A stretch of 64,000 nucleotides of DNA from a virus. Taxonomy: Duplodnaviria > Caudoviricetes. A program made the position numbers and the translations under genes. Numbering within the stretch: position 1 is the stretch's first letter; each line of letters begins with the position of its first letter. The notes under the pieces are model-generated. The model was given only the letters and a program-made list of their open reading frames with translations, did no database searches and was not told the DNA's origin. The stretch covers positions 128,001-192,000 of IMG/VR virus record IMGVR_UViG_3300014697_000001; one strand, written 5' to 3'. Shown here piece after piece: positions 1 to 11,079 of this stretch.

Positions 1-557
1 GAGACAGTCTGTTGGTTGGCCTGATTCTCGCTGTAAGGTTTTATTTCTACAGATTTGGCATTGGTCATGAGATTATACGTCATGACCATCTCATCAACCG
101 AAACGGTATCTAGAAGTTCCCGACTGGCCAGGGTCAGCAGGTTGAACCATCGAGGTAATGAAAGGATATTGCTAAAGACCTGATCAGCCTTTTCACGTGC
201 TGAAAAGTCATAAGAGACGCTGAGTTCATAATCCTCGTCTAGCACTATTTCGTTGACGGCTGTCAGGTTCGTGATCAACACGATATCGTCGATGCCGCGG
301 CTATGCAGCACTGCTTTGACCTCAGCTAAATAGCTTGCAGGCAGTAAAGCAATTTCACCACCATAGAGGTCGATGTGAGTAATATGATACCCTTCGGCTA
401 GAACCTCGTCGATGCGCTGCTCCAGTGCATCGATTGGCATTCTGGTCCGATCCGACAGTTTTTCAGGAGGCAGGTAACAGAAATTACATCTCAGGTTGCA
501 ATAATAGCTGAGGTTGACACTTAAGGTAAATTCTTTACCGGCATGGGATATCGACAT
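1..557 (-). CDS. radical SAM enzyme #4, 3' end runs off the window (not in the ORF track)
   Basis: Read by hand: ATG at 557 (GAGGT RBS upstream) gives MSISHAGKEFTLSVNLSYYCNLRCNFCYLP...HIDLYGGEIALL..., i.e. CxxxCxxC plus the GGE motif, open to position 1. Confidence 0.88.
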   Translation of the reverse strand, partial: MSISHAGKEFTLSVNLSYYCNLRCNFCYLPPEKLSDRTRMPIDALEQRIDEVLAEGYHITHIDLYGGEIALLPASYLAEVKAVLHSRGIDDIVLITNLTAVNEIVLDEDYELSVSYDFSAREKADQVFSNILSLPRWFNLLTLASRELLDTVSVDEMVMTYNLMTNAKSVEIKPYSENQANQQTV

Positions 558-576
558 GACTGACCTCTACAGTGTA

Positions 577-606
577 GATGTCCTGGAACGTTGGTTCCAG
601 GACATC
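577..606. promoter_or_regulatory. perfect 13-bp stem hairpin between two radical SAM genes
   Basis: GATGTCCTGGAAC-GTTG-GTTCCAGGACATC, no U-tract; may be an RNA stability/processing element rather than a terminator. Confidence 0.55.
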
Positions 607-613
607 ATGACAT

Positions 614-1750
614 CTACCCCTTAAAGATAAGTGGCAGGGACTCATCTTCATAGGGCGTGGGCTCAAGAAAGTCCTCCATGCCATTTAGGCGGATTATCTC
701 TGGAGCAAGTTCTTTCATGGTCCTGCAGTGGTGCTCTGTCAGACCTAGGCGCTTGGTGTCCCTCACCGTTTTTCGACACCCGTTACAGATCTGAAACATC
801 GGGCAGGCATAACACGCATCTTTCATGGCCTGAATATCGGGGGCGTTCTGAAGAGGGGTGAAAAACTCACCTGCCATCTCACGCTCAAAATCGATCGGAT
901 ACTCTCCATCGTCCCCAAACGCACCGCACGAGTAATAGCTATTGCCGGGCTGCAGGCTCCGGATACCCTCATCACAGCTACGGTTCAGCGGACATACGGT
1001 GTTCTGTATCCGCAGTCGACGCATCATTGAGGTGGTGTTGTGTTCCCATTCGGCCAGACCAGCCTTTGCGATCTCAACGTAGTGCCGGTAGATATCGGCC
1101 TGAGTAAACATGGAGTTTGCATTACCGATGGTCACTCCTTTAAAGACCACCGGCTCACCCGAGGCTACTGCATGGTTGATCTTGGCGACTACACCCATCT
1201 TCTTGGCCAATTCTACTGTCTTTAAGATGGTGTCTTCGTTAGACTTGTCGATGACCGCAATAAAGCTTGGTCGATACCCGACAAGTTCAAGCATGAGGTC
1301 TGAACATGCCCAGAATTCTTCTTCGCTAAAGGGTGTAAGATCACCTTTCAATCGGGCATCGCCGTATTGGAACGAAGTCCCGACACCCATTCTCTCGTGC
1401 CTGAAAAGATCAACCCACATCTCAGGTTTCTTGTAAAATGCCCAGAGGTTGGTGGTAAACGAGATGCGCGCCGGACAGTTATGTTTATCAAGGATCTTGA
1501 TCATGTCCCAGTAGTACTGGGGTTTCATCATCAAGGGATCGCCCCCGTTGACAATTACTGTCCGGGTGTCTGGGAACCTTACGATAAACCGTTCAAAGTC
1601 TTCTAGCTCGACAATCGCATTGTCGTCCTCAGAAATATGGGTACTTGAACAAAACGTGCATTTAAAGTTGCAACGTACGGTGGGCTTGATGATGAGATCT
1701 ATTTTATAATCCTCCTGCCACGTCACCTTATCGCCGGTGACAATGGACAC
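614..1750 (-). CDS. radical SAM/SPASM-domain enzyme #3
   Basis: IKPTVRCNFKCTFC (CxxxCxxC), GGDP, C-terminal CPLNRSC...YYSCG...CYACPMFQICNGC...HC auxiliary-cluster cysteines. Confidence 0.92.
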   Translation of the reverse strand: MSIVTGDKVTWQEDYKIDLIIKPTVRCNFKCTFCSSTHISEDDNAIVELEDFERFIVRFPDTRTVIVNGGDPLMMKPQYYWDMIKILDKHNCPARISFTTNLWAFYKKPEMWVDLFRHERMGVGTSFQYGDARLKGDLTPFSEEEFWACSDLMLELVGYRPSFIAVIDKSNEDTILKTVELAKKMGVVAKINHAVASGEPVVFKGVTIGNANSMFTQADIYRHYVEIAKAGLAEWEHNTTSMMRRLRIQNTVCPLNRSCDEGIRSLQPGNSYYSCGAFGDDGEYPIDFEREMAGEFFTPLQNAPDIQAMKDACYACPMFQICNGCRKTVRDTKRLGLTEHHCRTMKELAPEIIRLNGMEDFLEPTPYEDESLPLIFKG

Positions 1751-1756
1751 GCAAAG

Positions 1757-1960
1757 TTAGTGCGCCGGTTTGGGGCGCTGTCTAAGATGGTTGACCATGT
1801 TGATGATGGTGTATCCATCGGTCACCAACTCCCTGGCAGGGTAATCGGTAGGTTCCATTCCGTTTTCTTCCATCCATTGGATGGCTTGGTTATATCCGTC
1901 TGCCGACAGAGGAAAATCCTTAATGTTCATGGGATGCTGTCTCGACGCCGTTACCGTCAT
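1757..1960 (-). CDS. small hypothetical protein within the radical SAM cluster (alternative start 1930)
   Basis: 67-aa ORF, co-oriented, ends 6 nt before the rSAM #3 start. Confidence 0.55.
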   Translation of the reverse strand: MTVTASRQHPMNIKDFPLSADGYNQAIQWMEENGMEPTDYPARELVTDGYTIINMVNHLRQRPKPAH

Positions 1961-2023
1961 TGTGATAAGGGGTGTCGTTAATCGGGATATGGCGCCGTAT
2001 CACCGAAATTAGAAAATACCCGC

Positions 2024-2045
2024 TAGCCTTAATTCATACAAACTG
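2024..2045 (-). promoter_or_regulatory. candidate late promoter (TATG core)
   Basis: Minus strand CAGTTTGTATGAATTAAGGCTA in an AT-rich gap, 19/22 identical to 38899-38920 upstream of the tape-measure gene; TATG is the phiKZ late-promoter core. Confidence 0.45.
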
Positions 2046-2126
2046 CCGGTGTTATAAAATAAAATAATCGAGACAGCATATTCTTCATTCCCATGTGGAA
2101 CCTATAGTTTACCGACACATGCACAA

Positions 2127-2154
2127 TAGGTCACGGGGAGTTCCCCGTGACCTA
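2127..2154 (-). terminator. GC-rich hairpin after rSAM #2
   Basis: TAGGTCACGGGGA-GT-TCCCCGTGACCTA immediately downstream of the stop at 2159. Confidence 0.55.
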
Positions 2155-2158
2155 GTCG

Positions 2159-3157
2159 TTATACGCCTATTGCCTTGAACATTTCCTTTATCTGACAGGT
2201 GGGGTTGCCATCGTCGATAAAGGTGTGGTGAAGAAAGCACCGCATTCCGCAGCGCGAATAGTACTCACATGAGAAGCAGTCGTATTTCTCAACGAACCGT
2301 ATCTCTGCATCATCCTTGGCTTTGAGTCCTTCACCTTCGTCCAGGATCGCATTCTTTCCTGCCTCTGACCAGCAGGTGCTGACAACCCCGTCCTTATTGA
2401 TGATCTTGGTTGATCGGCAGGTGGTCTCATTGAACGTGTTCCGTTTCCAATCCTTGATAGGGTAGGAATTGGGGTAACGCTCGTTGAGAACCAGATAAAG
2501 TTTCCCAATTAGTTCTTCATCCGGCTGGATGTATTCGTACATCTGGCTTGGAATATAGTGATCGAAATAAACATCGAATTGATCACACATCCACGTCACT
2601 TCACGCCCTTCCTCATTGTTGAGAAAGGCATTGATGTTTTGTTTAGTGATCACGACATTGACTGTTCTCACATACTCCTTGACCTTATCCAAGTTATGGA
2701 CAAACTTGGCCCGACCTATGCGATCGAAACGTCCGGCTGGATCGTAAGAGGTTGCAATCTGCGTACGGCCATGCACATTGAGACGCTCGACCAAATTAAC
2801 CAACCTATAGACCCGGTCGTAGACAAGGTTAGTCCCAAGAACCAGAATACAGTCATCGAAATGCTCAAATATCCGTTTACCGGCCTGATAATACCGTTCG
2901 AAGAATTCATCTGAGAATTCGTCTAGGAACAGTTCACCACCGGTCATATTCACTACATAGGGCTGACGCGGATCGGTATTGGCAATGAGTGTCTCTGTCT
3001 TTTCCTGGATGGTGTCGAATCCAACTTTAGAGTCATGATCCTGATGACAGAATGAACACCTGAGGTTACAGTATTCGAAAAGGATCAAATGGGCTTCTTT
3101 CCAGTGCCCTTTTTTCTCTTTCAGTATATCGACCACCGGTATTAGGTGATCTACCAT
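2159..3157 (-). CDS. radical SAM/SPASM-like enzyme #2
   Basis: LFEYCNLRCSFC, TGGE, C-terminal CRSTKIINKDG..STC...CFSCEYYSRCGMRC...C. Confidence 0.9.
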   Translation of the reverse strand: MVDHLIPVVDILKEKKGHWKEAHLILFEYCNLRCSFCHQDHDSKVGFDTIQEKTETLIANTDPRQPYVVNMTGGELFLDEFSDEFFERYYQAGKRIFEHFDDCILVLGTNLVYDRVYRLVNLVERLNVHGRTQIATSYDPAGRFDRIGRAKFVHNLDKVKEYVRTVNVVITKQNINAFLNNEEGREVTWMCDQFDVYFDHYIPSQMYEYIQPDEELIGKLYLVLNERYPNSYPIKDWKRNTFNETTCRSTKIINKDGVVSTCWSEAGKNAILDEGEGLKAKDDAEIRFVEKYDCFSCEYYSRCGMRCFLHHTFIDDGNPTCQIKEMFKAIGV

Positions 3158-4215
3158 TCGCTACCCTCCATCAGTGCTCTGACCTGAGCGTCATCGAGCC
3201 GGATAACGTGGCGGATGAGGTTCTCGTTATACTTGGCGGAATCGACATGACCGAGCCTGAAATTATCCTTACCCCCATCGAACAAACGGCGAATGCGGGC
3301 GATCACATTTTCATAGACAGTCATGTCGGATGTGTCCAGAAACAGTTGACGAAGTCGGTCAGAACGAGCCGCTGACGGCAGGTCACCGCAATCGGTCAAC
3401 ACCAGTACGATCTTTTCAAGGAGATCGATATACCATTCATCTGGGTAGCGTTTCTTTTTGTTTTCCGGCGAACGAATGAACGGGTTGGCCAGTTCACCAA
3501 AGTTGACACAGGCCTCAAAGATGCTATTGCTCGCCAACAGCGATTCTTCTGTTGCACCTGAGATGTCCCAGCGAGTGGGGTCAGCAATGATCCGTCCCCA
3601 ATCATCCAGTGCATCCAGGCTGTTACTCATGGCGGTTCGGCGCATGATATTACCGATAGTGTCTGGGACAGTGCCTACTGACTGGGTTGACATCATCTTT
3701 ATAATGCGCCATTCCAGCGAGGTGTAGTCTGGGCGCGCTTTAATCAGTCGTCTGAGCGGAGCGACCAGTGGGTCGTCCTTATGTTCCCATAGCTCTTTGA
3801 CGATATCTGCATTGATTAAGATGGCCATTTCGTGACCGAATACCCGGTCATAGAACGTTACAGTCGAAGTGCTGTATGTGGCCTTGATGCAGATGAAGAA
3901 CGTCTTAAACGTACGGTAGTCGATCTTGGGAAACAGCGCAAACAGCAAGATTGCGTACATGCGAGTGTATGTCTTTGAGTCTGCAAAGACATACACTTTG
4001 TCATTGAATTCCATTGCCTTTAGAAGCAATGCGTAAAACTCAGACGGAGTAAAATCGTCAAGCGACATACCCCATCCGAGCTGAGTACCTAGACCAAGAC
4101 TTCCCGGAAAGTCGAGTCGTTGGTAGCCGCGATTTTCCGATATGTTTATCTGATGGTCGGAGGGTTTTGACTGAAACTCCGACTCCACATAAACGTCACC
4201 CAGCAAGTGGAACAT
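3151..4215 (-). CDS. hypothetical accessory protein of the radical SAM cluster
   Basis: 354-aa ORF overlapping the rSAM #2 start, 3 nt from the upstream gene; no recognised catalytic motif. Confidence 0.8.
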   Translation of the reverse strand: MFHLLGDVYVESEFQSKPSDHQINISENRGYQRLDFPGSLGLGTQLGWGMSLDDFTPSEFYALLLKAMEFNDKVYVFADSKTYTRMYAILLFALFPKIDYRTFKTFFICIKATYSTSTVTFYDRVFGHEMAILINADIVKELWEHKDDPLVAPLRRLIKARPDYTSLEWRIIKMMSTQSVGTVPDTIGNIMRRTAMSNSLDALDDWGRIIADPTRWDISGATEESLLASNSIFEACVNFGELANPFIRSPENKKKRYPDEWYIDLLEKIVLVLTDCGDLPSAARSDRLRQLFLDTSDMTVYENVIARIRRLFDGGKDNFRLGHVDSAKYNENLIRHVIRLDDAQVRALMEGSEW

Positions 4216-4218
4216 ATC

Positions 4219-4968
4219 TTAGTCCTCTTCGTGTGCCGCAGTGATCATGCGGTCCAGTTGTTCCTGGTCGAGACCATATCTGGCAACGGTTGCCATGTAT
4301 AGCGGGTTTTGAGGCACTGCAAAGTACGTGTACAGATTTTTACCTGAGAACACGTATTCGTTGAAATGGAACGGGCTATAGGTCATAGCTTCCAGAGGGA
4401 TGTCGTCGATCAACAGATGGAACAACGGATGCGCGATCAGATGAACATAGTTGATACCCGCCATGTTCTCATCGTCTGGAGTCACCGGCCACTTGTTAAA
4501 GAATTCCCGATCGACACTGGAGTCTGTAAAGAATGCATAGAGTCGCAGTGCGGCGATTCGACGCAACCAGACATTGATTATGTCGATGTTGGCTTCAATG
4601 AAGTCACTAGGATCAAAGCTCAGCAGACACGGGTGGTTGGTGTGATATAGCAAGATGTTGATCACCACATCCAGCAGATCATCGATCTTAGCCAGTGCCG
4701 GATGGTGCATGTATGCTACCACCAGCTCAAGCGACTCGTCCTGATTTTCCAACATCAAGCGACACTTAAGATCAAGGTTACTGAGGTAGGTGATCAGTAC
4801 TTTGTTCTTGAATTTACTGTTTTTATAATCGATTATAAATTCAATGTCTTCGGTGAACTTGCGCTTGAGATCGACAATCGGGATAGGTGCACATGTGGTC
4901 AGGTGTACTGTGGGTGCTGCCGGGACGGGGGTGTCAGAACTCTCGATGATGGCTACTTCAGTGGTCAT
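4219..4968 (-). CDS. hypothetical accessory protein of the radical SAM cluster
   Basis: 249-aa ORF with GGAG RBS, directly downstream of the Cys-His repeat gene. Confidence 0.8.
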   Translation of the reverse strand: MTTEVAIIESSDTPVPAAPTVHLTTCAPIPIVDLKRKFTEDIEFIIDYKNSKFKNKVLITYLSNLDLKCRLMLENQDESLELVVAYMHHPALAKIDDLLDVVINILLYHTNHPCLLSFDPSDFIEANIDIINVWLRRIAALRLYAFFTDSSVDREFFNKWPVTPDDENMAGINYVHLIAHPLFHLLIDDIPLEAMTYSPFHFNEYVFSGKNLYTYFAVPQNPLYMATVARYGLDQEQLDRMITAAHEED

Positions 4969-4986
4969 GGTGTGCGCTCCAGGTGA

Positions 4987-5691
4987 TTAACGGCGGCCAC
5001 GGTTTGAATGGCAGTTCGAGTGGCAGCTCGAATGGCAGACAGGGACGTTCGAGTGACAGCTCGAATGGCAGCTCGAATGGCAGACAGGGACGTTCGAGTG
5101 ACAGCTCGAATGGCAGACAGGGACGTTCGAGTGACAGCTGGCATGGCAGCTGGCATGGCAGCTGGTGTGACAACTTGAATGACAGCTCGAATGGCAGTAT
5201 GTCGTTGTGAGTGTCTCAACCACCGGGTTTCCAGCTTTCGACCACCATTCTTGATAAAGCGCGTTACAGTAATTGACAAACCCTTGGCTGGTCGCATCAC
5301 TGCCGGACAGCAGTGGAGAGGCCGATTGGCCCGTCAGTCCCGCAGGTCCGGTTGCATAGTTGCCGATGGCGGTTGCATCGAATCGCGTTAGAAGGCTGCC
5401 ATTACTGTTGTAATAGACGATCATGCGCTTTTTACATGCCTTGGCAAATACCGACACGAACGCCTTAAGCGCGGTGTTGATTTTTTCCGCCGTAGCGTTT
5501 CCGTCGAACGCGGTTGTGGCGCTGGTGAGGCTTGGCATGTTTGGGGCTGCTTTGGTCCCTGCAAACCAACTCGCCGGGATGTATGCATTGGGGATGTTGT
5601 CGTTACCATAAACGATCTGGGACCTGATTTTGTCCCCAATCAGCAGGTTAACATCCGCTATTGCTTGGGTCTTACCCAAATTTGTAGCCAT
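4987..5691 (-). CDS. Cys-His-x-Ser/Asn repeat protein, candidate radical SAM substrate (precursor or modified virion protein)
   Basis: 234 aa: ~165-aa N-terminal domain, then CHSS CHSS CHTS CHAS CHAS CHSN VPV CHSS CHSN VPV CHSS CHSS CHSN VPV CHSS CHSN CHSN RGRR; AAGGGG RBS; flanked by rSAM genes. Confidence 0.85.
   Translation of the reverse strand: MATNLGKTQAIADVNLLIGDKIRSQIVYGNDNIPNAYIPASWFAGTKAAPNMPSLTSATTAFDGNATAEKINTALKAFVSVFAKACKKRMIVYYNSNGSLLTRFDATAIGNYATGPAGLTGQSASPLLSGSDATSQGFVNYCNALYQEWWSKAGNPVVETLTTTYCHSSCHSSCHTSCHASCHASCHSNVPVCHSSCHSNVPVCHSSCHSSCHSNVPVCHSSCHSNCHSNRGRR
4990..5196 (-). repeat. coding tandem repeat (12-nt units, plus three exact copies of a 33-nt unit)
   Basis: CAGCTCGAATGGCAGACAGGGACGTTCGAGTGA at 5024-5056, 5069-5101 and 5102-5134. 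Confidence 0.9.
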
Positions 5692-5697
5692 ATCAAC

Positions 5698-6735
5698 TTA
5701 CCCCTTAAAGATAATGTTTGATGTCGAACTGCGACCCGAAAGATACCGCAGCGTGTGTTTGAGTCCGCCGCAACGATTTCCTTGCCAGGGAAGGCGATGA
5801 CAGTCACCACCACAGAGATCAAAGACATCGCAGTGCGTGCAATTTGGATTGAAATCCAATTCTTTTACGATTTCATTAATACGGCCCTCGGACATAAGAA
5901 ATTCATCAGCCGTATTCTCGATGTGAGCATGGCGATGTTCTGTCGCCATGTTAGGACATCCACCCAATGTACCATTTGAGTTTATGGTCACAAGGTTCTG
6001 TTCACAGTTTCGACAGTTTGTGTCGGTCTTGACCAGATTCTGTTTTAGTTTCTTGAACAGGATGTCAAGTGTCTGGATAGTGCAGGCCGGTTTTCGCTCC
6101 TGGTATCGCTTAGCCAGTGCCAGATACCACTCATCTTGTTCTGTGTTATCTGGAAATATCGCCGGATGCCAATGGGTATTCCCGCCAATGGTCAAACGTT
6201 CCAAGGAGATGGCATCTACCCCAAAGGATTCGAACTGATCCAGCACCCAGTCGGCGCTGGACGCTACCAGCTCTTTACTGACGGATACTTTCAGATAAAC
6301 AGTAAACCCTCGATCTTTGAGGATCTTCACGTTCTTACGCCACAGAGCTATCTGTTTCTCGTTGTCCCATCTGATCCAGTGATCCCAGCTAGTACCTATG
6401 GTCTTGTTGAATCGCCGCTCCATGAAGGAAATGATGTCATCGGTTAGCTTGAATGTCAGATTACTGTTTCCACACATACTGACGTTCTGCATGTCATCGA
6501 ACTTACTGGCAAAGTACTCCAGTTTTTCGACAGGAACCAGGAAAGGTTCACCGCCATGGTATTCAAGATGTACGTGTGTACCGGGGTCGTAATGTGACAT
6601 GAAGTCTTTGATCCATGTCGCAGTGGCATCGGGATCAAATTGCGTTTTATCGCCGCTCTTGCCGTTGGTGAAGCAGTGATCACAATTTAGGTTACAGGTC
6701 CCGGTGGTTTTGACATAAATCGTTTTAGATGACAT
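5698..6735 (-). CDS. radical SAM/SPASM-domain enzyme #1
   Basis: VKTTGTCNLNCDHC, HGGEP, CRNC...INSNGTLGGCP...CTHCDVFDLCGGDC...C; start placed at ATG 6735, right after the oxygenase stop (ORF track extends to 6765). Confidence 0.92.
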   Translation of the reverse strand: MSSKTIYVKTTGTCNLNCDHCFTNGKSGDKTQFDPDATATWIKDFMSHYDPGTHVHLEYHGGEPFLVPVEKLEYFASKFDDMQNVSMCGNSNLTFKLTDDIISFMERRFNKTIGTSWDHWIRWDNEKQIALWRKNVKILKDRGFTVYLKVSVSKELVASSADWVLDQFESFGVDAISLERLTIGGNTHWHPAIFPDNTEQDEWYLALAKRYQERKPACTIQTLDILFKKLKQNLVKTDTNCRNCEQNLVTINSNGTLGGCPNMATEHRHAHIENTADEFLMSEGRINEIVKELDFNPNCTHCDVFDLCGGDCHRLPWQGNRCGGLKHTLRYLSGRSSTSNIIFKG

Positions 6736-6736
6736 T

Positions 6737-7258
6737 CTATAACTTCTCGATGATGAATGACTCAAGACCGATGCTTAGCATCGTGTTCTCGGTGATGTTA
6801 ATCGCTTCATGAGGATAGTGGGCGGGCATTTGCATGACGTCCCCTTCATGTAACTCTATCGAGCATTCGGGGTTGCGAAACACCTTGATCCCAGACAGAA
6901 GAACAACCACGACCGTGTCCGGATCAGTGTGCAGTGGAAAACTGGCACCGCCGGCAGGGGACTTGAACAGATGGCATGTAACAGGTCCCTTATGCCCCAA
7001 GTGAATGGCTAGAGTGTTGCATCCTTCAAAGAATGCCCGGTTTAGTTTTTCAATACCTTCTATCTTGATGACAGGCTCCAGGAGCCTGCTGTAAAGATTG
7101 GTGATGCTGCTTGCAACATGCCCTTGGTGTGCGGCGTCGATGTATTTGATAATGCCTTGCTCGTAAGAGTATGGACTTGACAATATGTCGTCGAACGGCA
7201 GTGGGGCGTTGAGCAATTCTGCAACACCTGGTGTATCGCGTTTTAATCGAGTGAACAT
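6737..7258 (-). CDS. JmjC/cupin-family Fe(II)/2-oxoglutarate-type oxygenase
   Basis: SFPLHTDP (HxD)...SGIKVF...LHEGDVMQMPAHYPHEAIN (distal His), the YcfD/RoxA-like pattern; GAGGT RBS before ATG 7258. Confidence 0.8.
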   Translation of the reverse strand: MFTRLKRDTPGVAELLNAPLPFDDILSSPYSYEQGIIKYIDAAHQGHVASSITNLYSRLLEPVIKIEGIEKLNRAFFEGCNTLAIHLGHKGPVTCHLFKSPAGGASFPLHTDPDTVVVVLLSGIKVFRNPECSIELHEGDVMQMPAHYPHEAINITENTMLSIGLESFIIEKL

Positions 7259-7314: not shown

Positions 7315-8754
7315 TTAACTCCACTGAGCAGGCCATATCTGGCGCCACACTCCACCGATGTAAGCCTGCAGCGTACCACTGACCTCACGCAACGAGGTAG
7401 AAACCGAACTGTTGACCATGACATACCGGCTGTCGTGATCGCCCGCCAGGATGTGGTCATGCATAGCACCTGCCAACAACAGAGTCGCACTGCTGTTGAC
7501 GTTACGTTCCCGCGACACCTCATTCGGAATGTTGCTCAGTCCGACTTGTGTCTTGGTCACCGCGTGCGGGTTGTTCAAGTTACTTACGTGGGTGTTGAGC
7601 AGTGCTCCAGCCTGGAACGTAATCGCTTCTTTGGTCCGCAGGGGGGTCATGAAGCGTGTGGACAACGTACCGGCCTCAGCTTCCGTCTTAGTGGCGGTAC
7701 TGTAGTTATCCACACTGCCCAGACCCACTTGAGCCTTGGTGACACTGTGTGGATTACTTACGTTGGCGGCGTGCAGTACATACGCATCACCCACCTGAGC
7801 GGCAATCGCAGCTTTAGTCACAGAGGCGGTCATGTACTTGTCGGTTGCCGTACCACTGACTCCCTCTGCGGAGCTGGCAGTACCATAGTTCAGTACATTG
7901 CCCAGACCCACCTGGGCCTTGGTCACGTTATGTGGGTTGGTCTTGTCGGCAATGTGGGTGTCCACTGCTTCTTTAACCAACTTGGCGATCAGCAAAGTTG
8001 TGGTGGCTGGGGTCATGTAGCGGGTGGGAAGTTCTCCAGCCAATGCCTCAACAGACGTGGCTGGTGGGAAGTCCTCCACCAAGCCCAGCCCCACCTGAGC
8101 CTTAGTCACCGCGTGTGGATTGGCCTTGTCCGACACGTGCGTGAACAGTCGAGCATCCACTGCCCGAATCTCGGTTTCAAGATCATCACGAATGGTCTGC
8201 ATCTGCATGCGCAGTTCATCGTGAGATGCTTCGTCACCCACCAGGATTGCATTACGAATACTTTCTAGCTGAAATACCACGTACTCCCAGCCATAGGTAT
8301 CGCCAATGTCATGGATGTGGGGTGCCGCAGGATATGCCAGAGGACGACCAACCAACGACCCCCATTTAACCGGACGCTCATCCAGATCAAGGGTGTTTAT
8401 CAGGTCGATCAGGGCGTTCATGTTCCATGAATATTCGCCACCGACTACCTGATAGTCCATGCTGACAATAATGGGTACATTGGTCTTTAGCAAAACAGCG
8501 GATTGGACGTCTTTACCAGTGCGCAGGGCGGCCTGTTGGAAGGGCTGACACAGAACGTAATCGTCTACTGGGCGAAGAACTTCACCGGTCTCAGTATTGG
8601 TCAGTACCATGCTTTCGGTATAGAACGGCCCTGCTGCGGGCACAAACGCACGCTCACGTGTGTTGGTGATGCTTCGAATTTCGCCCACTATCCGGTTGGT
8701 GGGCGATGTCCCAAGCTTATCCAGTGGGTAGGTGATGATCGGAAGATTAGCCAT
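7315..8754 (-). CDS. tail fibre-like virion protein (phiKZ gp145/146-like)
   Basis: Four ~60-aa repeats H-x7-H (..NPH)xVTKxQVGL..V.N/D..YMTP; N-terminal YPLDKLG domain paralogous to 8797-11079; C-terminal GGVWRQIWP. Confidence 0.75.
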   Translation of the reverse strand: MANLPIITYPLDKLGTSPTNRIVGEIRSITNTRERAFVPAAGPFYTESMVLTNTETGEVLRPVDDYVLCQPFQQAALRTGKDVQSAVLLKTNVPIIVSMDYQVVGGEYSWNMNALIDLINTLDLDERPVKWGSLVGRPLAYPAAPHIHDIGDTYGWEYVVFQLESIRNAILVGDEASHDELRMQMQTIRDDLETEIRAVDARLFTHVSDKANPHAVTKAQVGLGLVEDFPPATSVEALAGELPTRYMTPATTTLLIAKLVKEAVDTHIADKTNPHNVTKAQVGLGNVLNYGTASSAEGVSGTATDKYMTASVTKAAIAAQVGDAYVLHAANVSNPHSVTKAQVGLGSVDNYSTATKTEAEAGTLSTRFMTPLRTKEAITFQAGALLNTHVSNLNNPHAVTKTQVGLSNIPNEVSRERNVNSSATLLLAGAMHDHILAGDHDSRYVMVNSSVSTSLREVSGTLQAYIGGVWRQIWPAQWS

Positions 8755-8796
8755 GTGGATATACTCGATGTCTGTCAGAGAGGACTAGCCTCTCCA

Positions 8797-11079
8797 TCAG
8801 GAGAAGATAACGGTGAGAGAGTCTAGCACCGTGCTGATTTCATCAATGATCACATTGGTGACATCGGTCATGTGTTTCGGAGTGATCATGACCTCGTTCG
8901 ATTCACCGGCCATAGCCTGATCGTCAGAGGCAATTCCTCGACCCAGTGTTACGGGCGTGAAATTGACCACATCGACGGGGCGGAAGGGAATCAGATCGTT
9001 TACGCTGGAAGGCGCTGTCTGAGGTGCCGGGGTCATTCGTTTATATGATAGTTCAGTGACGTCAACACGATTTCGAGGCGATGGCGAATGGAGCCATATT
9101 TCTACTGCAGCGGAATTGTCTGCACCAACCTGACGGTAGCCGAGTTCGAACATACCAGATAGCGAGGTATTCAGGTACCTCGATTCTGCGGCAGATACCT
9201 GCATCACCTGTTCGCCATTGACGTTCTCCATAGAACACGACAAGGTGGCCATAACTGTGGGGTTGATGTGAAACTCTAGCGAATCATTGTCCCGCCCACC
9301 TGTAAACAACAAGGTGGTGTCGTATGTCAGCCCCACGTCAATAGCTTGATGAATGGTACCGACCTTTACCCAGCTGGACTGTTGAACATTACCGCTGTCA
9401 TCCCCGCTAAAGTTAGGGATCTCAGGGAGGCTGAATTGGATCTTGCTGTCTGTGATCCCGCTGCTGACACTGCTTTGAATCTCGGCCAGGGTGAGACCAC
9501 CCAGTTTATTAGAGTTTGCAGAAGTCCCGGCCAAAATCTCAGTCGTTGCCTGAACAAAGGTGCGCCCTTCCAACTTCAGCGCATTCTGCATATCCAGGCT
9601 TCTGATACGGCTTTCTAAGCCAGCCTGATCCATTCCGAATACTTTCAGCGCATCAGCGGCTTTCTCACCTACACCGAGTTTCTCAGCCAGGGCAATATCC
9701 ATGTACTGGATACTGTAAGCCCCTACTTGCTCTGCTGTAACCCGATGAGGGTTGTTGTAGTCTGTCGTATGTGCTCCCGAGCTGCCATCCCCTACCAGCG
9801 CGTTGATGGCTTGTCGAACAGCCAGCGGGGTCATGAACCGATCGGTCCGAGTACCATCTCTGGCATCGGTTTCAGTAGCGGTACTGTAGTTGTCTACGTT
9901 ACCCAGTCCGATTTGTGCTTTGGTCACCGCATGGGGGTTATTCGACGAACTAACGTGGTCATTGATCTGAGGGGTGATGGTTTCGGTAACAACCATCCGC
10001 ATCAGTCGCGGCGTCATGACACCTGAATCATCAGTACCCAGGAGCGCCGCAGCGTTGGTAGCAATGCCAATGTTGACGACGTTCCCCAGACCTACTTGTG
10101 CCTTGGTGGTGCTGTGGGGGTTGTTCTTGTCCCCGGCGTGCGCATTGAACGCGTCGCCAGTAATGGCCATGATGGCTTCACGCACCCGTAGAGGGGTCAT
10201 GTAGCGTGCGTTACTGGCACCTGCTTCAGCTTCCGCTGTAGTGGCGATGGCATAGTTCTGTACGTTACCCAGACTGATTTGTGCCTTGGTTACGGCATGG
10301 GGATTCGTCTTGTCGGCAATGTGATCATTGAGTGCGGCTGTAGCCACTGCATCGATCAGCTGCTTGGTGCGCAGAGGCGTCATGAACCGATTATGGGCCA
10401 CACCATCGGTAGCTTCTACAGGCGAGGCAGTGGGGAAGTTATCCACCAGCCCAAGACCGACCTGAGACTTGGTCACTTCATGTGGGTTGGCCTTGGAGTC
10501 GACGTGACTGGACAGGCCGCCTTCATTCTTCTGCTCAATCGCAGTGCTGATAGTACCCAGTTGATCGACCACCTCGCTCATGCCGACAAAGTCATCAACG
10601 TTGAAGTCATGGTTCACGACCGGGAACTGGTGCGGCAATTCCACCAGTTGCTCCCAGGTGGCAATGCGCGGGTTGTAAGCTACGTTGAGCAATAGCTCTG
10701 ACATCGCCTGGTCATTGAGAACCCAGTCGCCGCCGAGGGTCTGCAATTCCATCCGCAGTTGACCTTCCAGATTACGATCATAGAAGGTGATGGCACCGTA
10801 GACCGGCTTTCCAATGGTATGCGATGCTTGGGTGAAATGATAACCGAAGTTGTAGTGTATTCCTTCTTTCAGCAGAATACCTTGGGCTGGATTGTTAGGG
10901 TTAGTACCTACAGGATAAAGGTGAAGCTTTGCCCCCTCGGCATAGAAAGGACTGACCCGGGGAACGACGTAATAGTGGTCGAACAAGCCCCGCGACTTGA
11001 TCGCTTGAGTTTCGACTACCTGGTTACTTTTAGCAAGCCCCGTCGGATCGAAAGGGTATTGTGGGATGACAGTACTCAT
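8797..11079 (-). CDS. tail fibre-like virion protein (phiKZ gp145/146-like)
   Basis: N-terminal YPFDPTG domain, five NPH.VT..Q(V/I)GL repeats, variable beta-rich C-terminal domain. Confidence 0.78.
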   Translation of the reverse strand: MSTVIPQYPFDPTGLAKSNQVVETQAIKSRGLFDHYYVVPRVSPFYAEGAKLHLYPVGTNPNNPAQGILLKEGIHYNFGYHFTQASHTIGKPVYGAITFYDRNLEGQLRMELQTLGGDWVLNDQAMSELLLNVAYNPRIATWEQLVELPHQFPVVNHDFNVDDFVGMSEVVDQLGTISTAIEQKNEGGLSSHVDSKANPHEVTKSQVGLGLVDNFPTASPVEATDGVAHNRFMTPLRTKQLIDAVATAALNDHIADKTNPHAVTKAQISLGNVQNYAIATTAEAEAGASNARYMTPLRVREAIMAITGDAFNAHAGDKNNPHSTTKAQVGLGNVVNIGIATNAAALLGTDDSGVMTPRLMRMVVTETITPQINDHVSSSNNPHAVTKAQIGLGNVDNYSTATETDARDGTRTDRFMTPLAVRQAINALVGDGSSGAHTTDYNNPHRVTAEQVGAYSIQYMDIALAEKLGVGEKAADALKVFGMDQAGLESRIRSLDMQNALKLEGRTFVQATTEILAGTSANSNKLGGLTLAEIQSSVSSGITDSKIQFSLPEIPNFSGDDSGNVQQSSWVKVGTIHQAIDVGLTYDTTLLFTGGRDNDSLEFHINPTVMATLSCSMENVNGEQVMQVSAAESRYLNTSLSGMFELGYRQVGADNSAAVEIWLHSPSPRNRVDVTELSYKRMTPAPQTAPSSVNDLIPFRPVDVVNFTPVTLGRGIASDDQAMAGESNEVMITPKHMTDVTNVIIDEISTVLDSLTVIFS

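Follow-up and report, generated by a model that had tools for sequence, protein, structure and literature searches.

A conserved phage cassette probably modifies the Cys-His tail of a small virion protein post-translationally, one repeat unit at a time. The cassette lies at the start of a 64,000-nt window (positions 128,001 to 192,000) of the virus record IMGVR_UViG_3300014697_000001 (Duplodnaviria; Caudoviricetes). The record comprises 250,515 bp and is estimated to be 94% complete, so the label of a jumbo phage given in the initial annotation stands. That annotation had also described nine co-oriented minus-strand genes, all of which the open reading frame (ORF) listing of the window recovers (Table 1). 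The first six of them, separated by gaps or overlaps of -29 to +18 nt, encode a JmjC-like cupin, the radical S-adenosylmethionine (radical SAM, rSAM) protein rSAM1, the tailed protein, two accessory proteins termed c4 and c10, and rSAM2. Since a relative of the tailed protein is present in purified phage particles, the enzymes probably modify a part of the virion.

The putative substrate carries at its C-terminus exactly 14 C-H-x-[S/N] units, the number initially counted in this 234-residue protein, together with three VPV inserts and a terminal RGRR. In the DNA encoding the tail, a 12-bp unit occurs in 16.5 tandem copies (TRF); the higher-order units of 33, 45, and 78 bp are 92–96% identical, which points to recent expansion. 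The repeat frame is not a product of chance because hundreds of homologues have this reading frame and this tail as well. A sequence search with the tailed protein of the window matched 99 metagenomic proteins without a name, and a profile search of 1.84 billion cluster representatives (50% identity) returned 861 family members at E ≤ 1e-3. The N-domains of the homologues share 25–30% identity; the tail is almost invariant. The consensus of 121 unique tails is [VI]-C-H-[SAT]-S-C-H-S-[SN]-C-H-[GSN]-[SA]-R-G-R-R-end, in which the Cys, His, and Ser positions are each >90% fixed. The third residue counted from His is nearly always Ser, Asn, or Ala, all with a β-carbon, and is Gly in only six of the 121 last units; the middle residue may be Gly, Tyr occasionally stands in place of His, and some subgroups lack RGRR altogether. 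Three units are found in 121 of 129 new representatives, two in five, and four in three, and arrays of 11–15 units are confined to the lineage of the window (P0004–P0007, L011, L068). On this comparison, the 14 units arose by expansion, specific to this lineage, of a conserved, widespread three-unit motif.

The family has neither a name nor a Pfam entry, and the tailed protein gave no Pfam or NCBIfam match at E ≤ 0.1. In its AlphaFold2 model the N-domain (~165 residues) has a predicted local distance difference test score (pLDDT) of ~90 and the tail one of 50–60. Foldseek found no match in the PDB at E ≤ 0.001, the BFVD structure search returned only uncharacterised homologues, and matches in the ESM Atlas had TM-scores < 0.3; in the wide VIA search, matches were dominated by helical noise on the low-confidence tail, so that the search hardly probed the N-domain. 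Neither megablast with the 7.3-kb region nor tblastn with the tailed protein of the window matched anything in the phage collection, and relatives there were reached through rSAM1. Two metagenomic variants of the tailed protein (P0104 and P0105, 582 and 650 residues) have four CHxS units, lack RGRR, and run from these units directly into two or three Hint/intein-like domains (Hom_end_hint, 9.3e-16), whose self-cleavage would again place Cys-His units at a C-terminus. A 4.3-kb contig of a Dysosmobacter segnis assembly (L068) holds a contig-edge fragment with ~12 units ending in SARGRR, like the closest relatives of the window, and is probably phage DNA within a bacterial assembly.

The tie between the repeat protein and radical SAM genes, proposed from the window alone, was found at every locus examined among nine clustered loci, 56 IMG/VR loci, and the divergent loci from a scan of 185,579 prokaryote genomes. 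The 15 phage records in which tblastn detected rSAM1 homologues comprise Pseudomonas phage pPa_SNUABM_DT01 (DT01; 64% identity), Agrobacterium phage Atu_ph07, Sinorhizobium phage Phosso, and the Ralstonia/Burkholderia group of RSL2, RSF1, FLC, and S13; the tailed gene was confirmed in 11 RSL2-group records and in DT01, Atu_ph07, and Phosso. In DT01, Atu_ph07, RSL2, and Phosso, the gene that follows the rSAM1 homologue ends in CHxSCHxSCHxS-R(G/S)RR-stop. Clustering of nine loci gave a core order of cupin, rSAM1, tailed protein, c4, c10, and rSAM2, followed by variable, lineage-dependent extras (B12-binding rSAMs and 2-oxoglutarate (2OG) oxygenases). At all 56 IMG/VR loci the tailed gene adjoins a radical SAM gene, usually 2–30 nt away. 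Fifty of these loci show the order cupin, rSAM1, tail, and c4, with the cupin directly upstream of rSAM1 and the rSAM1 stop ≤ ~30 nt from the start of the tailed gene. In many IMG/VR loci an rSAM2-like homologue (326–370 residues) lies 2.2–3.0 kb downstream of the tailed gene. The same pairing of rSAM1 and tailed gene is seen in metagenomic loci L006–L010. Five other loci encode two tandem tailed proteins of 127–138 residues; at the three inspected, a 400-residue CX3CX2C protein follows directly and a long fibre-like protein precedes. A locus with 13 units (L011) has the same neighbours as three-unit loci, and growth from three to 14 units beside the same neighbours argues for enzymes that work unit by unit.

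The prokaryote scan, with its strict confirmation step, confirmed three loci: a contig of 4 kb bearing an expanded tail, a 208-kb contig labelled Gemella in which the tailed gene lies between rSAM genes, and an archaeal metagenome-assembled genome (MAG) in which a 487-residue protein with 11 internal CHxS units lies between rSAM and rSAM-SPASM genes. The Gemella-labelled contig and the archaeal MAG repeat the CHxS/rSAM pairing in divergent settings. In the MAG, from an uncultured archaeon (L070:4728-10155), the gene for a 288-residue rSAM ends 17 nt upstream of the CHxS protein, and a class-V aminotransferase gene is located further upstream (L070:1652-2890).

The proteome of purified Atu_ph07 virions contains Gp170, a protein of 31.89 kDa (PMC6102473, Table S5). 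We identify gp170 as the tailed homologue P0002 because the mass computed for the latter, 31,894 Da, matches the listed one. Gp170 is represented by eight unique peptides and 35% coverage and occurs in bands 1–9, most abundantly in band 1 at the top of the gel; as other proteins of ~30 kDa peak in bands 7–8 of the same gel, gp170 migrates as a much larger species (PMC6102473). The products gp165, 168, 169, 171, and 172 (rSAMs, c4, and cupin, with gp169 being the c4 homologue) are absent from the virion list (PMC6102473). Presence of gp170 but not of the flanking enzymes fits the initial suggestion that a modified protein serves the cell or the virion and is not a bacteriocin for secretion.

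The surroundings of the cassette point in the same direction. It starts 45 nt downstream of two tail-fibre-like genes, the shorter of which encodes a protein that matches phrog_2163, 'virion structural protein', at 4.7e-128 and many tail-fibre PHROGs; the product of the longer falls into the same cluster, and both contain NPHxVTKAQVGLG repeats. The same fibre-like pair precedes the cassette in DT01, RSL2, L006, and L009, and baseplate, fibre, or neck genes lie beside it in DT01, RSL2, Atu_ph07, L006, L009, L010, and L056/57. This position speaks for a structural role.

Matches in Pfam and NCBIfam back the assignment of the cupin and of the window's four radical SAM proteins, all four of which belong to phrog_1802. 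The CX3CX2C motif, the hallmark of the radical SAM superfamily, is present in six proteins of the cluster and places them in it. Relative to the Pfam Radical_SAM cut-off of 29.5 bits, rSAM3 (43.3 bits) and rSAM4 (37.2 bits) score above and rSAM1 (20.6 bits) and rSAM2 (24.3 bits) below. SPASM proteins are recognised by a seven-Cys pattern, CX9-15GX4C ... CX2CX5CX3C ... C, for two auxiliary clusters. In rSAM1, where CX3CX2C starts at residue 24, the corresponding cysteines are C254-x10-G-x4-C270, C309-x2-C-x5-C-x3-C322, and C332; these and C24, C28, and C31 are invariant in 36 homologues, and a TIGR04085 score of 28.2 bits (cut-off 27) assigns rSAM1 to the SPASM proteins. The full SPASM pattern is also found in rSAM2 (CX3CX2C at residue 30, C-x9-G-x4-C at 247, CX2CX5CX3C at 294), and rSAM3 (CX3CX2C at residue 27) has the variant CX2CX5CX2C at 313. 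The initial SPASM assignments of rSAM1 and rSAM3 thus stand, the latter with a variant pattern, and the plain rSAM label of the 332-residue enzyme does not.

The best NCBIfam matches of rSAM1 are PapB (51.8 bits), YhhB (49.4), AmcB (47.1), and anSME (44.6), with cut-offs of 340–445. The closest solved relatives of the rSAM1 profile are 8vpo, anSME (4k37, 1.2e-9), CteB (5wgg), ChlB (9gm3), and YydG; only the profile reached them, and phmmer of rSAM1 against the PDB gave no match. Because the NCBIfam scores stay below the cut-offs and the solved relatives are peptide or protein maturases, rSAM1 is, as judged by sequence, a new family within the peptide/protein-modifying SPASM clade. Its relatives are therefore of the SPASM maturase type that had been anticipated, not QueE or NrdG.

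The cupin just passes the Pfam cut-offs of Cupin_2 (31.9 bits; cut-off 27.2) and JmjC_2 (22.5 bits; cut-off 22), in line with its first description as a JmjC/cupin oxygenase. Its HxD...H triad (H114, D116, H154) and K129, a putative 2OG-binding Lys, are invariant in 40 homologues, and the protein probably is an Fe(II)/2OG oxygenase of the JmjC/cupin class, as predicted from these features. At L007, L008, and L069, whose tails end in CHGSI or CHHR and lack RGRR, the flanks contain no JmjC-like cupin; one is present at the standard RGRR loci. There is only a hint that the cupin may act on the Arg-rich end of the tail. A strict coupling of cupin and RGRR was rejected, as the five RGRR loci with tandem pairs also lack the cupin.

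The two genes initially left as unknowns, c4 and c10, are conserved core members of the cassette according to the locus comparisons. c4 (~240 residues in the family) follows the tailed gene in eight of the nine clustered loci and ~50 of the 56 IMG/VR loci, and jackhmmer finds c10 (~350 residues) directly after c4 in most loci. The AlphaFold2 model of c4 has a pLDDT of 91.9 and no fold match in the PDB (best Foldseek E 0.24, best VIA Z 3.9); c10 falls into no family of Pfam, NCBIfam, or PHROG. Each of the two is a candidate for a new family. The idea that they are degenerate rSAM paralogues was discarded (hhalign against the rSAM1 profile, probability 0.2%), and a Protein Atlas feature search for the two gave no usable lead. 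Complex prediction for c4 and the tailed protein scored 0.00, below the mark, which counts neither for nor against contact between the two.

From this material we propose the following mechanism. In the infected cell, rSAM1 would abstract a hydrogen from each C-H-x-S unit, leading to an intramolecular cross-link. By analogy with characterised systems, the product would most plausibly be either a Cys thioether or a link within His-x-Ser like those of triceptides or HxsA. The likeliest link would join the His ring to the β-carbon of the third residue, as in triceptides, or be an HxsA-type change on S-H-x-S-S; a Cys thioether could be formed instead or as an extra link by another paralogue, and the invariant Cys could otherwise stay free for metal or disulfide. 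The fixed Ser, the β-carbon at the third residue, the tolerance of Gly in the middle, and the replacement of His by Tyr fit the aromatic-X-X motif of triceptides. The oxygenases would then hydroxylate the tail or its RGRR end. Action unit by unit would explain how the tail could expand from three to 14 units with no change of enzyme set. The finished protein would be built into the particle near the fibre or baseplate, with the enzymes staying in the cell. More tentatively, the rSAMs, the oxygenases, and the two new-fold proteins could turn the tail into a cross-linked, possibly metal-binding or covalently tethering element that would staple or arm a fibre or baseplate component, with a length tunable by the number of repeats.

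Several points weigh against modification of the tail, which is deduced from gene linkage and motif conservation. The scores of rSAM1 with all characterised maturase families fall far short of the cut-offs, and rSAM1 has no RRE-like recognition domain. The virion location derives from one distant homologue with 15% identity in a structure-based alignment. The Atu_ph07 gel loading buffer, as described, contains no reducing agent (PMC6102473), so that disulfide-linked multimers explain the gp170 top band as well as an enzymatic cross-link does. With ~12 enzymes the cluster far exceeds the needs of one short tail, and some enzymes may act elsewhere, for example on the adjacent fibres. The gel behaviour, which suits multimers bridged by disulfides or by metal, and the surplus of enzymes also speak for an alternative in which the Cys-His tail is a metal-binding (zinc, iron, or copper) or disulfide structural module or inter-subunit staple of a fibre or baseplate part, and the enzymes modify the fibres, another virion protein, or a small molecule. 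With their fixed spacing, three Cys and three His make a plausible ligand set and might do no more than bind metal or engage in disulfides; Tyr, the occasional substitute of His, can also ligate metal, and in phage T4, gp37 and gp12 hold metal ions via His motifs. This alternative, however, leaves unexplained the near-invariant Ser, the β-carbon rule at the third residue, and the adjacency to SPASM rSAMs (all 56 loci plus two divergent loci with different proteins), and the cluster showed no second protein with a conserved motif that could serve as substrate; we consider this alternative unlikely.

It is far less credible that the system is a classical pathway for a RiPP (a peptide made by the ribosome and then modified post-translationally), with the 165-residue N-domain as the leader and the modified peptide cut off to act as a bacteriocin, metallophore, or signal on the host or competitors. 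Precursors with repeated cores and SPASM maturases are typical of RiPPs, the many tailoring enzymes, with a B12-rSAM in some loci, recall proteusin-like pathways, and the rare variants with Hint/intein-like self-cleaving domains directly after the repeats would suit release of a peptide. Yet there is no peptidase, exporter, or immunity gene in or near any locus inspected, the motif lies at the very C-terminus and no conserved cleavage site precedes it, the N-domain is well folded and conserved, and peptides covering 35% of the Atu_ph07 homologue come from virions. The cassette could also be the phage counterpart of the bacterial HXS defence, its matured basic His-x-Ser/RGRR tail binding DNA or envelope components for superinfection exclusion, DNA delivery, or counter-defence and not for particle structure. 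This recalls HxsA, whose rSAM-matured basic HxS repeats bind periplasmic DNA and block phage DNA entry (PMC13128918); the phage tail combines H-x-S triplets with a basic RGRR end, and a virion-borne copy could reach the periplasm at infection. Against such a role, which we regard as rather improbable, stand the scores of the four Hxs families tested, none near its cut-off, the lack of a peptidoglycan-binding domain or signal peptide, a different gene order, and the subgroups without RGRR; the function is, moreover, wholly inferred. Unit-by-unit modification of a virion protein tail remains our preferred reading.

The cluster extends ~6 kb past base 1 of the window, to about twice what the window shows, and in full comprises six CX3CX2C radical SAM proteins and four 2OG-oxygenase-like proteins. 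Beyond base 1 lie the remainder of rSAM4, two further, adjacent CX3CX2C proteins (341 and 351 residues), both missed by Pfam, and then, on the same strand, a 149-residue protein, the four 2OG-oxygenase-like proteins, and one further unknown protein (L005:10331-15620). A scan for promoters and terminators gave counts no higher than in shuffled controls. The 67-residue ORF between rSAM2 and rSAM3 is preceded by a 199-nt gap and has no Pfam, NCBIfam, or PHROG family. It was rejected as a second precursor because it shows no conservation with the small ORF at the same position in DT01, and for the same reason it may not be a gene.

Table 1. Coordinates of the cassette and its neighbours (window numbering unless a locus is given)
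Feature	Coordinates	Strand	Basis
Two tail-fibre-like virion proteins, 479 residues (7315-8754) and 760 residues (8797-11079)	7315-11079	minus	PHROG match, clustering
Cupin, JmjC-like, first cassette gene, 177 residues	6737-7270	minus	Pfam, phrog_8014
rSAM1, full SPASM domain, 355 residues	5698-6765	minus	CX3CX2C, TIGR04085, phrog_1802
Cys-His-tailed protein, putative substrate and putative virion protein, 234 residues	4987-5691	minus	C-terminal (CHxS)14-RGRR
Tail-coding tandem repeat, residues 166-234	4990-5196	minus	TRF
c4, conserved accessory protein, 249 residues	4219-4968	minus	phrog_20767
c10, conserved accessory protein, 354 residues	3151-4215	minus	jackhmmer
rSAM2, SPASM cysteine pattern, 332 residues	2159-3157	minus	motif, phrog_1802
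67-residue ORF, doubtful gene	1757-1960	minus	ORF only
rSAM3, SPASM-like C-terminus, 378 residues	614-1750	minus	Pfam Radical_SAM 43.3 bits, phrog_1802
rSAM4, N-terminal 185 residues of a 317-residue protein	1-557 (listed ORF 3-557)	minus	Pfam Radical_SAM 37.2 bits, phrog_1802
rSAM4, complete gene (reaches past window start)	L005:15604-16557		
Cluster extension upstream of window base 1	G000:C1 ~122,300-127,600 = L005:10331-15620	same strand	

In large phages, radical SAM genes are routinely filed under auxiliary or 'DNA repair/metabolism' functions. The genome papers of FLC6, S13, RP12/RP31, and DT01 do no more than list the cupin, rSAM, and 2OG genes, and our literature search found nothing that describes the cassette or its Cys-His tail. 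What is new here is a putative rSAM/SPASM repeat substrate that is a phage particle protein, together with two accessory families to which no fold is assigned. A block of phage rSAM genes is thereby tied to one near-invariant motif and to the virus particle, which provides a concrete candidate substrate, and cultured carriers exist (Atu_ph07, RSL2, RSF1, FLC6, S13, DT01, and Phosso). If the tail is modified, RiPP-type radical chemistry would extend to virion assembly, and the large unannotated family of tailed proteins and the two accessory families would be defined as well. A tail altered in this way would carry the first modification that rSAMs install on a structural protein of the virion, and would mirror bacterial HxsA on the phage side. 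The newly described HXS defence, where a similar motif is used against phages, is a natural comparison.

Among the known systems, anSME (TIGR03942; PDB 4K36-4K39) resembles the phage cassette in that a SPASM rSAM modifies Cys or Ser within a full-size protein; it is also among the closest solved relatives of the rSAM1 profile, and in the last phage unit, C-H-x-x-R, Cys and Arg are as far apart as in C-x-P/A-x-R. Its score for rSAM1 is, however, far from the cut-off (349.45 bits), the Pro/Ala position is mostly Gly, Ser, or Asn in the phage tails, units 1 and 2 lack Arg, and the N-domain has no sulfatase match, so rSAM1 does not belong to this family. The ranthipeptide enzyme PapB with its substrate PapA (NF047865) offers the best match of rSAM1, over nearly its full length, an iterative enzyme, and Cys at a four-residue period. 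In contrast to PapA (CX3D), the phage units contain no Asp/Glu acceptor, there is no secreted peptide product, and with a cut-off of 340 bits rSAM1 falls outside the PapB type.

Triceptide enzymes (YhhB, HaaB, HtkB, AmcB, XyeB) are SPASM rSAMs that act repeatedly on aromatic-X-X and accept His in HAA, HNR, and HTK; HaaB, YhhB, and HtkB link His-C2 to the β-carbon of residue 3 (PMC11499958). The 121 unique tails present this aromatic-X2-X3 substrate as H-[SAT]-S, H-S-[SN], and H-[GSN]-[SA], and YhhB and AmcB rank second and third among the NCBIfam matches of rSAM1. Those two scores nonetheless amount to ~1/10 of the respective cut-offs (445 and 425 bits). With FxsB at 39.7 and GrrM at 25.7 bits for rSAM1 and XyeB at 19.8 bits for the 378-residue rSAM, none of the three-residue cyclophane-forming enzyme (3-CyFE) families, with cut-offs of 310–450, includes the phage proteins. 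The putative phage substrate differs as well, being a virion protein of 130–300 residues with an invariant Cys in each unit instead of a leader-core peptide.

The HXS defence, with its rSAM-matured protein of H-x-S repeats, is the nearest characterised analogue, but the phage cassette is not a member of it. In this system HxsA, with five HxS repeats, is matured by the rSAMs HxsB and HxsC together with HxsD (PMC13128918, Li et al., Nat Commun 2026). HxsA gains +8 Da on an SHRSS motif, in which His and the outer Ser are essential, and mature HxsA blocks DNA entry from the periplasm; the gene order is D-B-C-A in 99.6% of systems, and phage-encoded versions go unmentioned (PMC13128918). An affinity with the Hxs families, raised by the initial annotation, was not borne out: rSAM1 scores 25.6 bits with HxsB (TIGR03978) versus 370, and HxsC (TIGR03977) gives 27.7 bits for the 378-residue and 18.7 bits for the 332-residue rSAM versus 267.9. 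The tailed protein is no HxsA (His_Ser_Rich), its H-x-S triplets occurring only inside C-H-x-S units, and among c4, c10, and the 67-residue ORF, which lack any NCBIfam match, there is no HxsD. The phage units differ by the invariant Cys before His, the C-terminal motif that ends in RGRR, and the lack of a peptidoglycan-binding domain; gene order and accessory proteins (cupin, c4, c10) are different too, and the cassette is encoded by phages, with a homologue packaged in virions. Both systems nevertheless place a folded protein with tandem H-x-S-containing repeats beside dedicated rSAMs and small accessory proteins, the His and Ser essential in HxsA are near-invariant in the phage tail, and the product of HxsA, too, acts as a protein.

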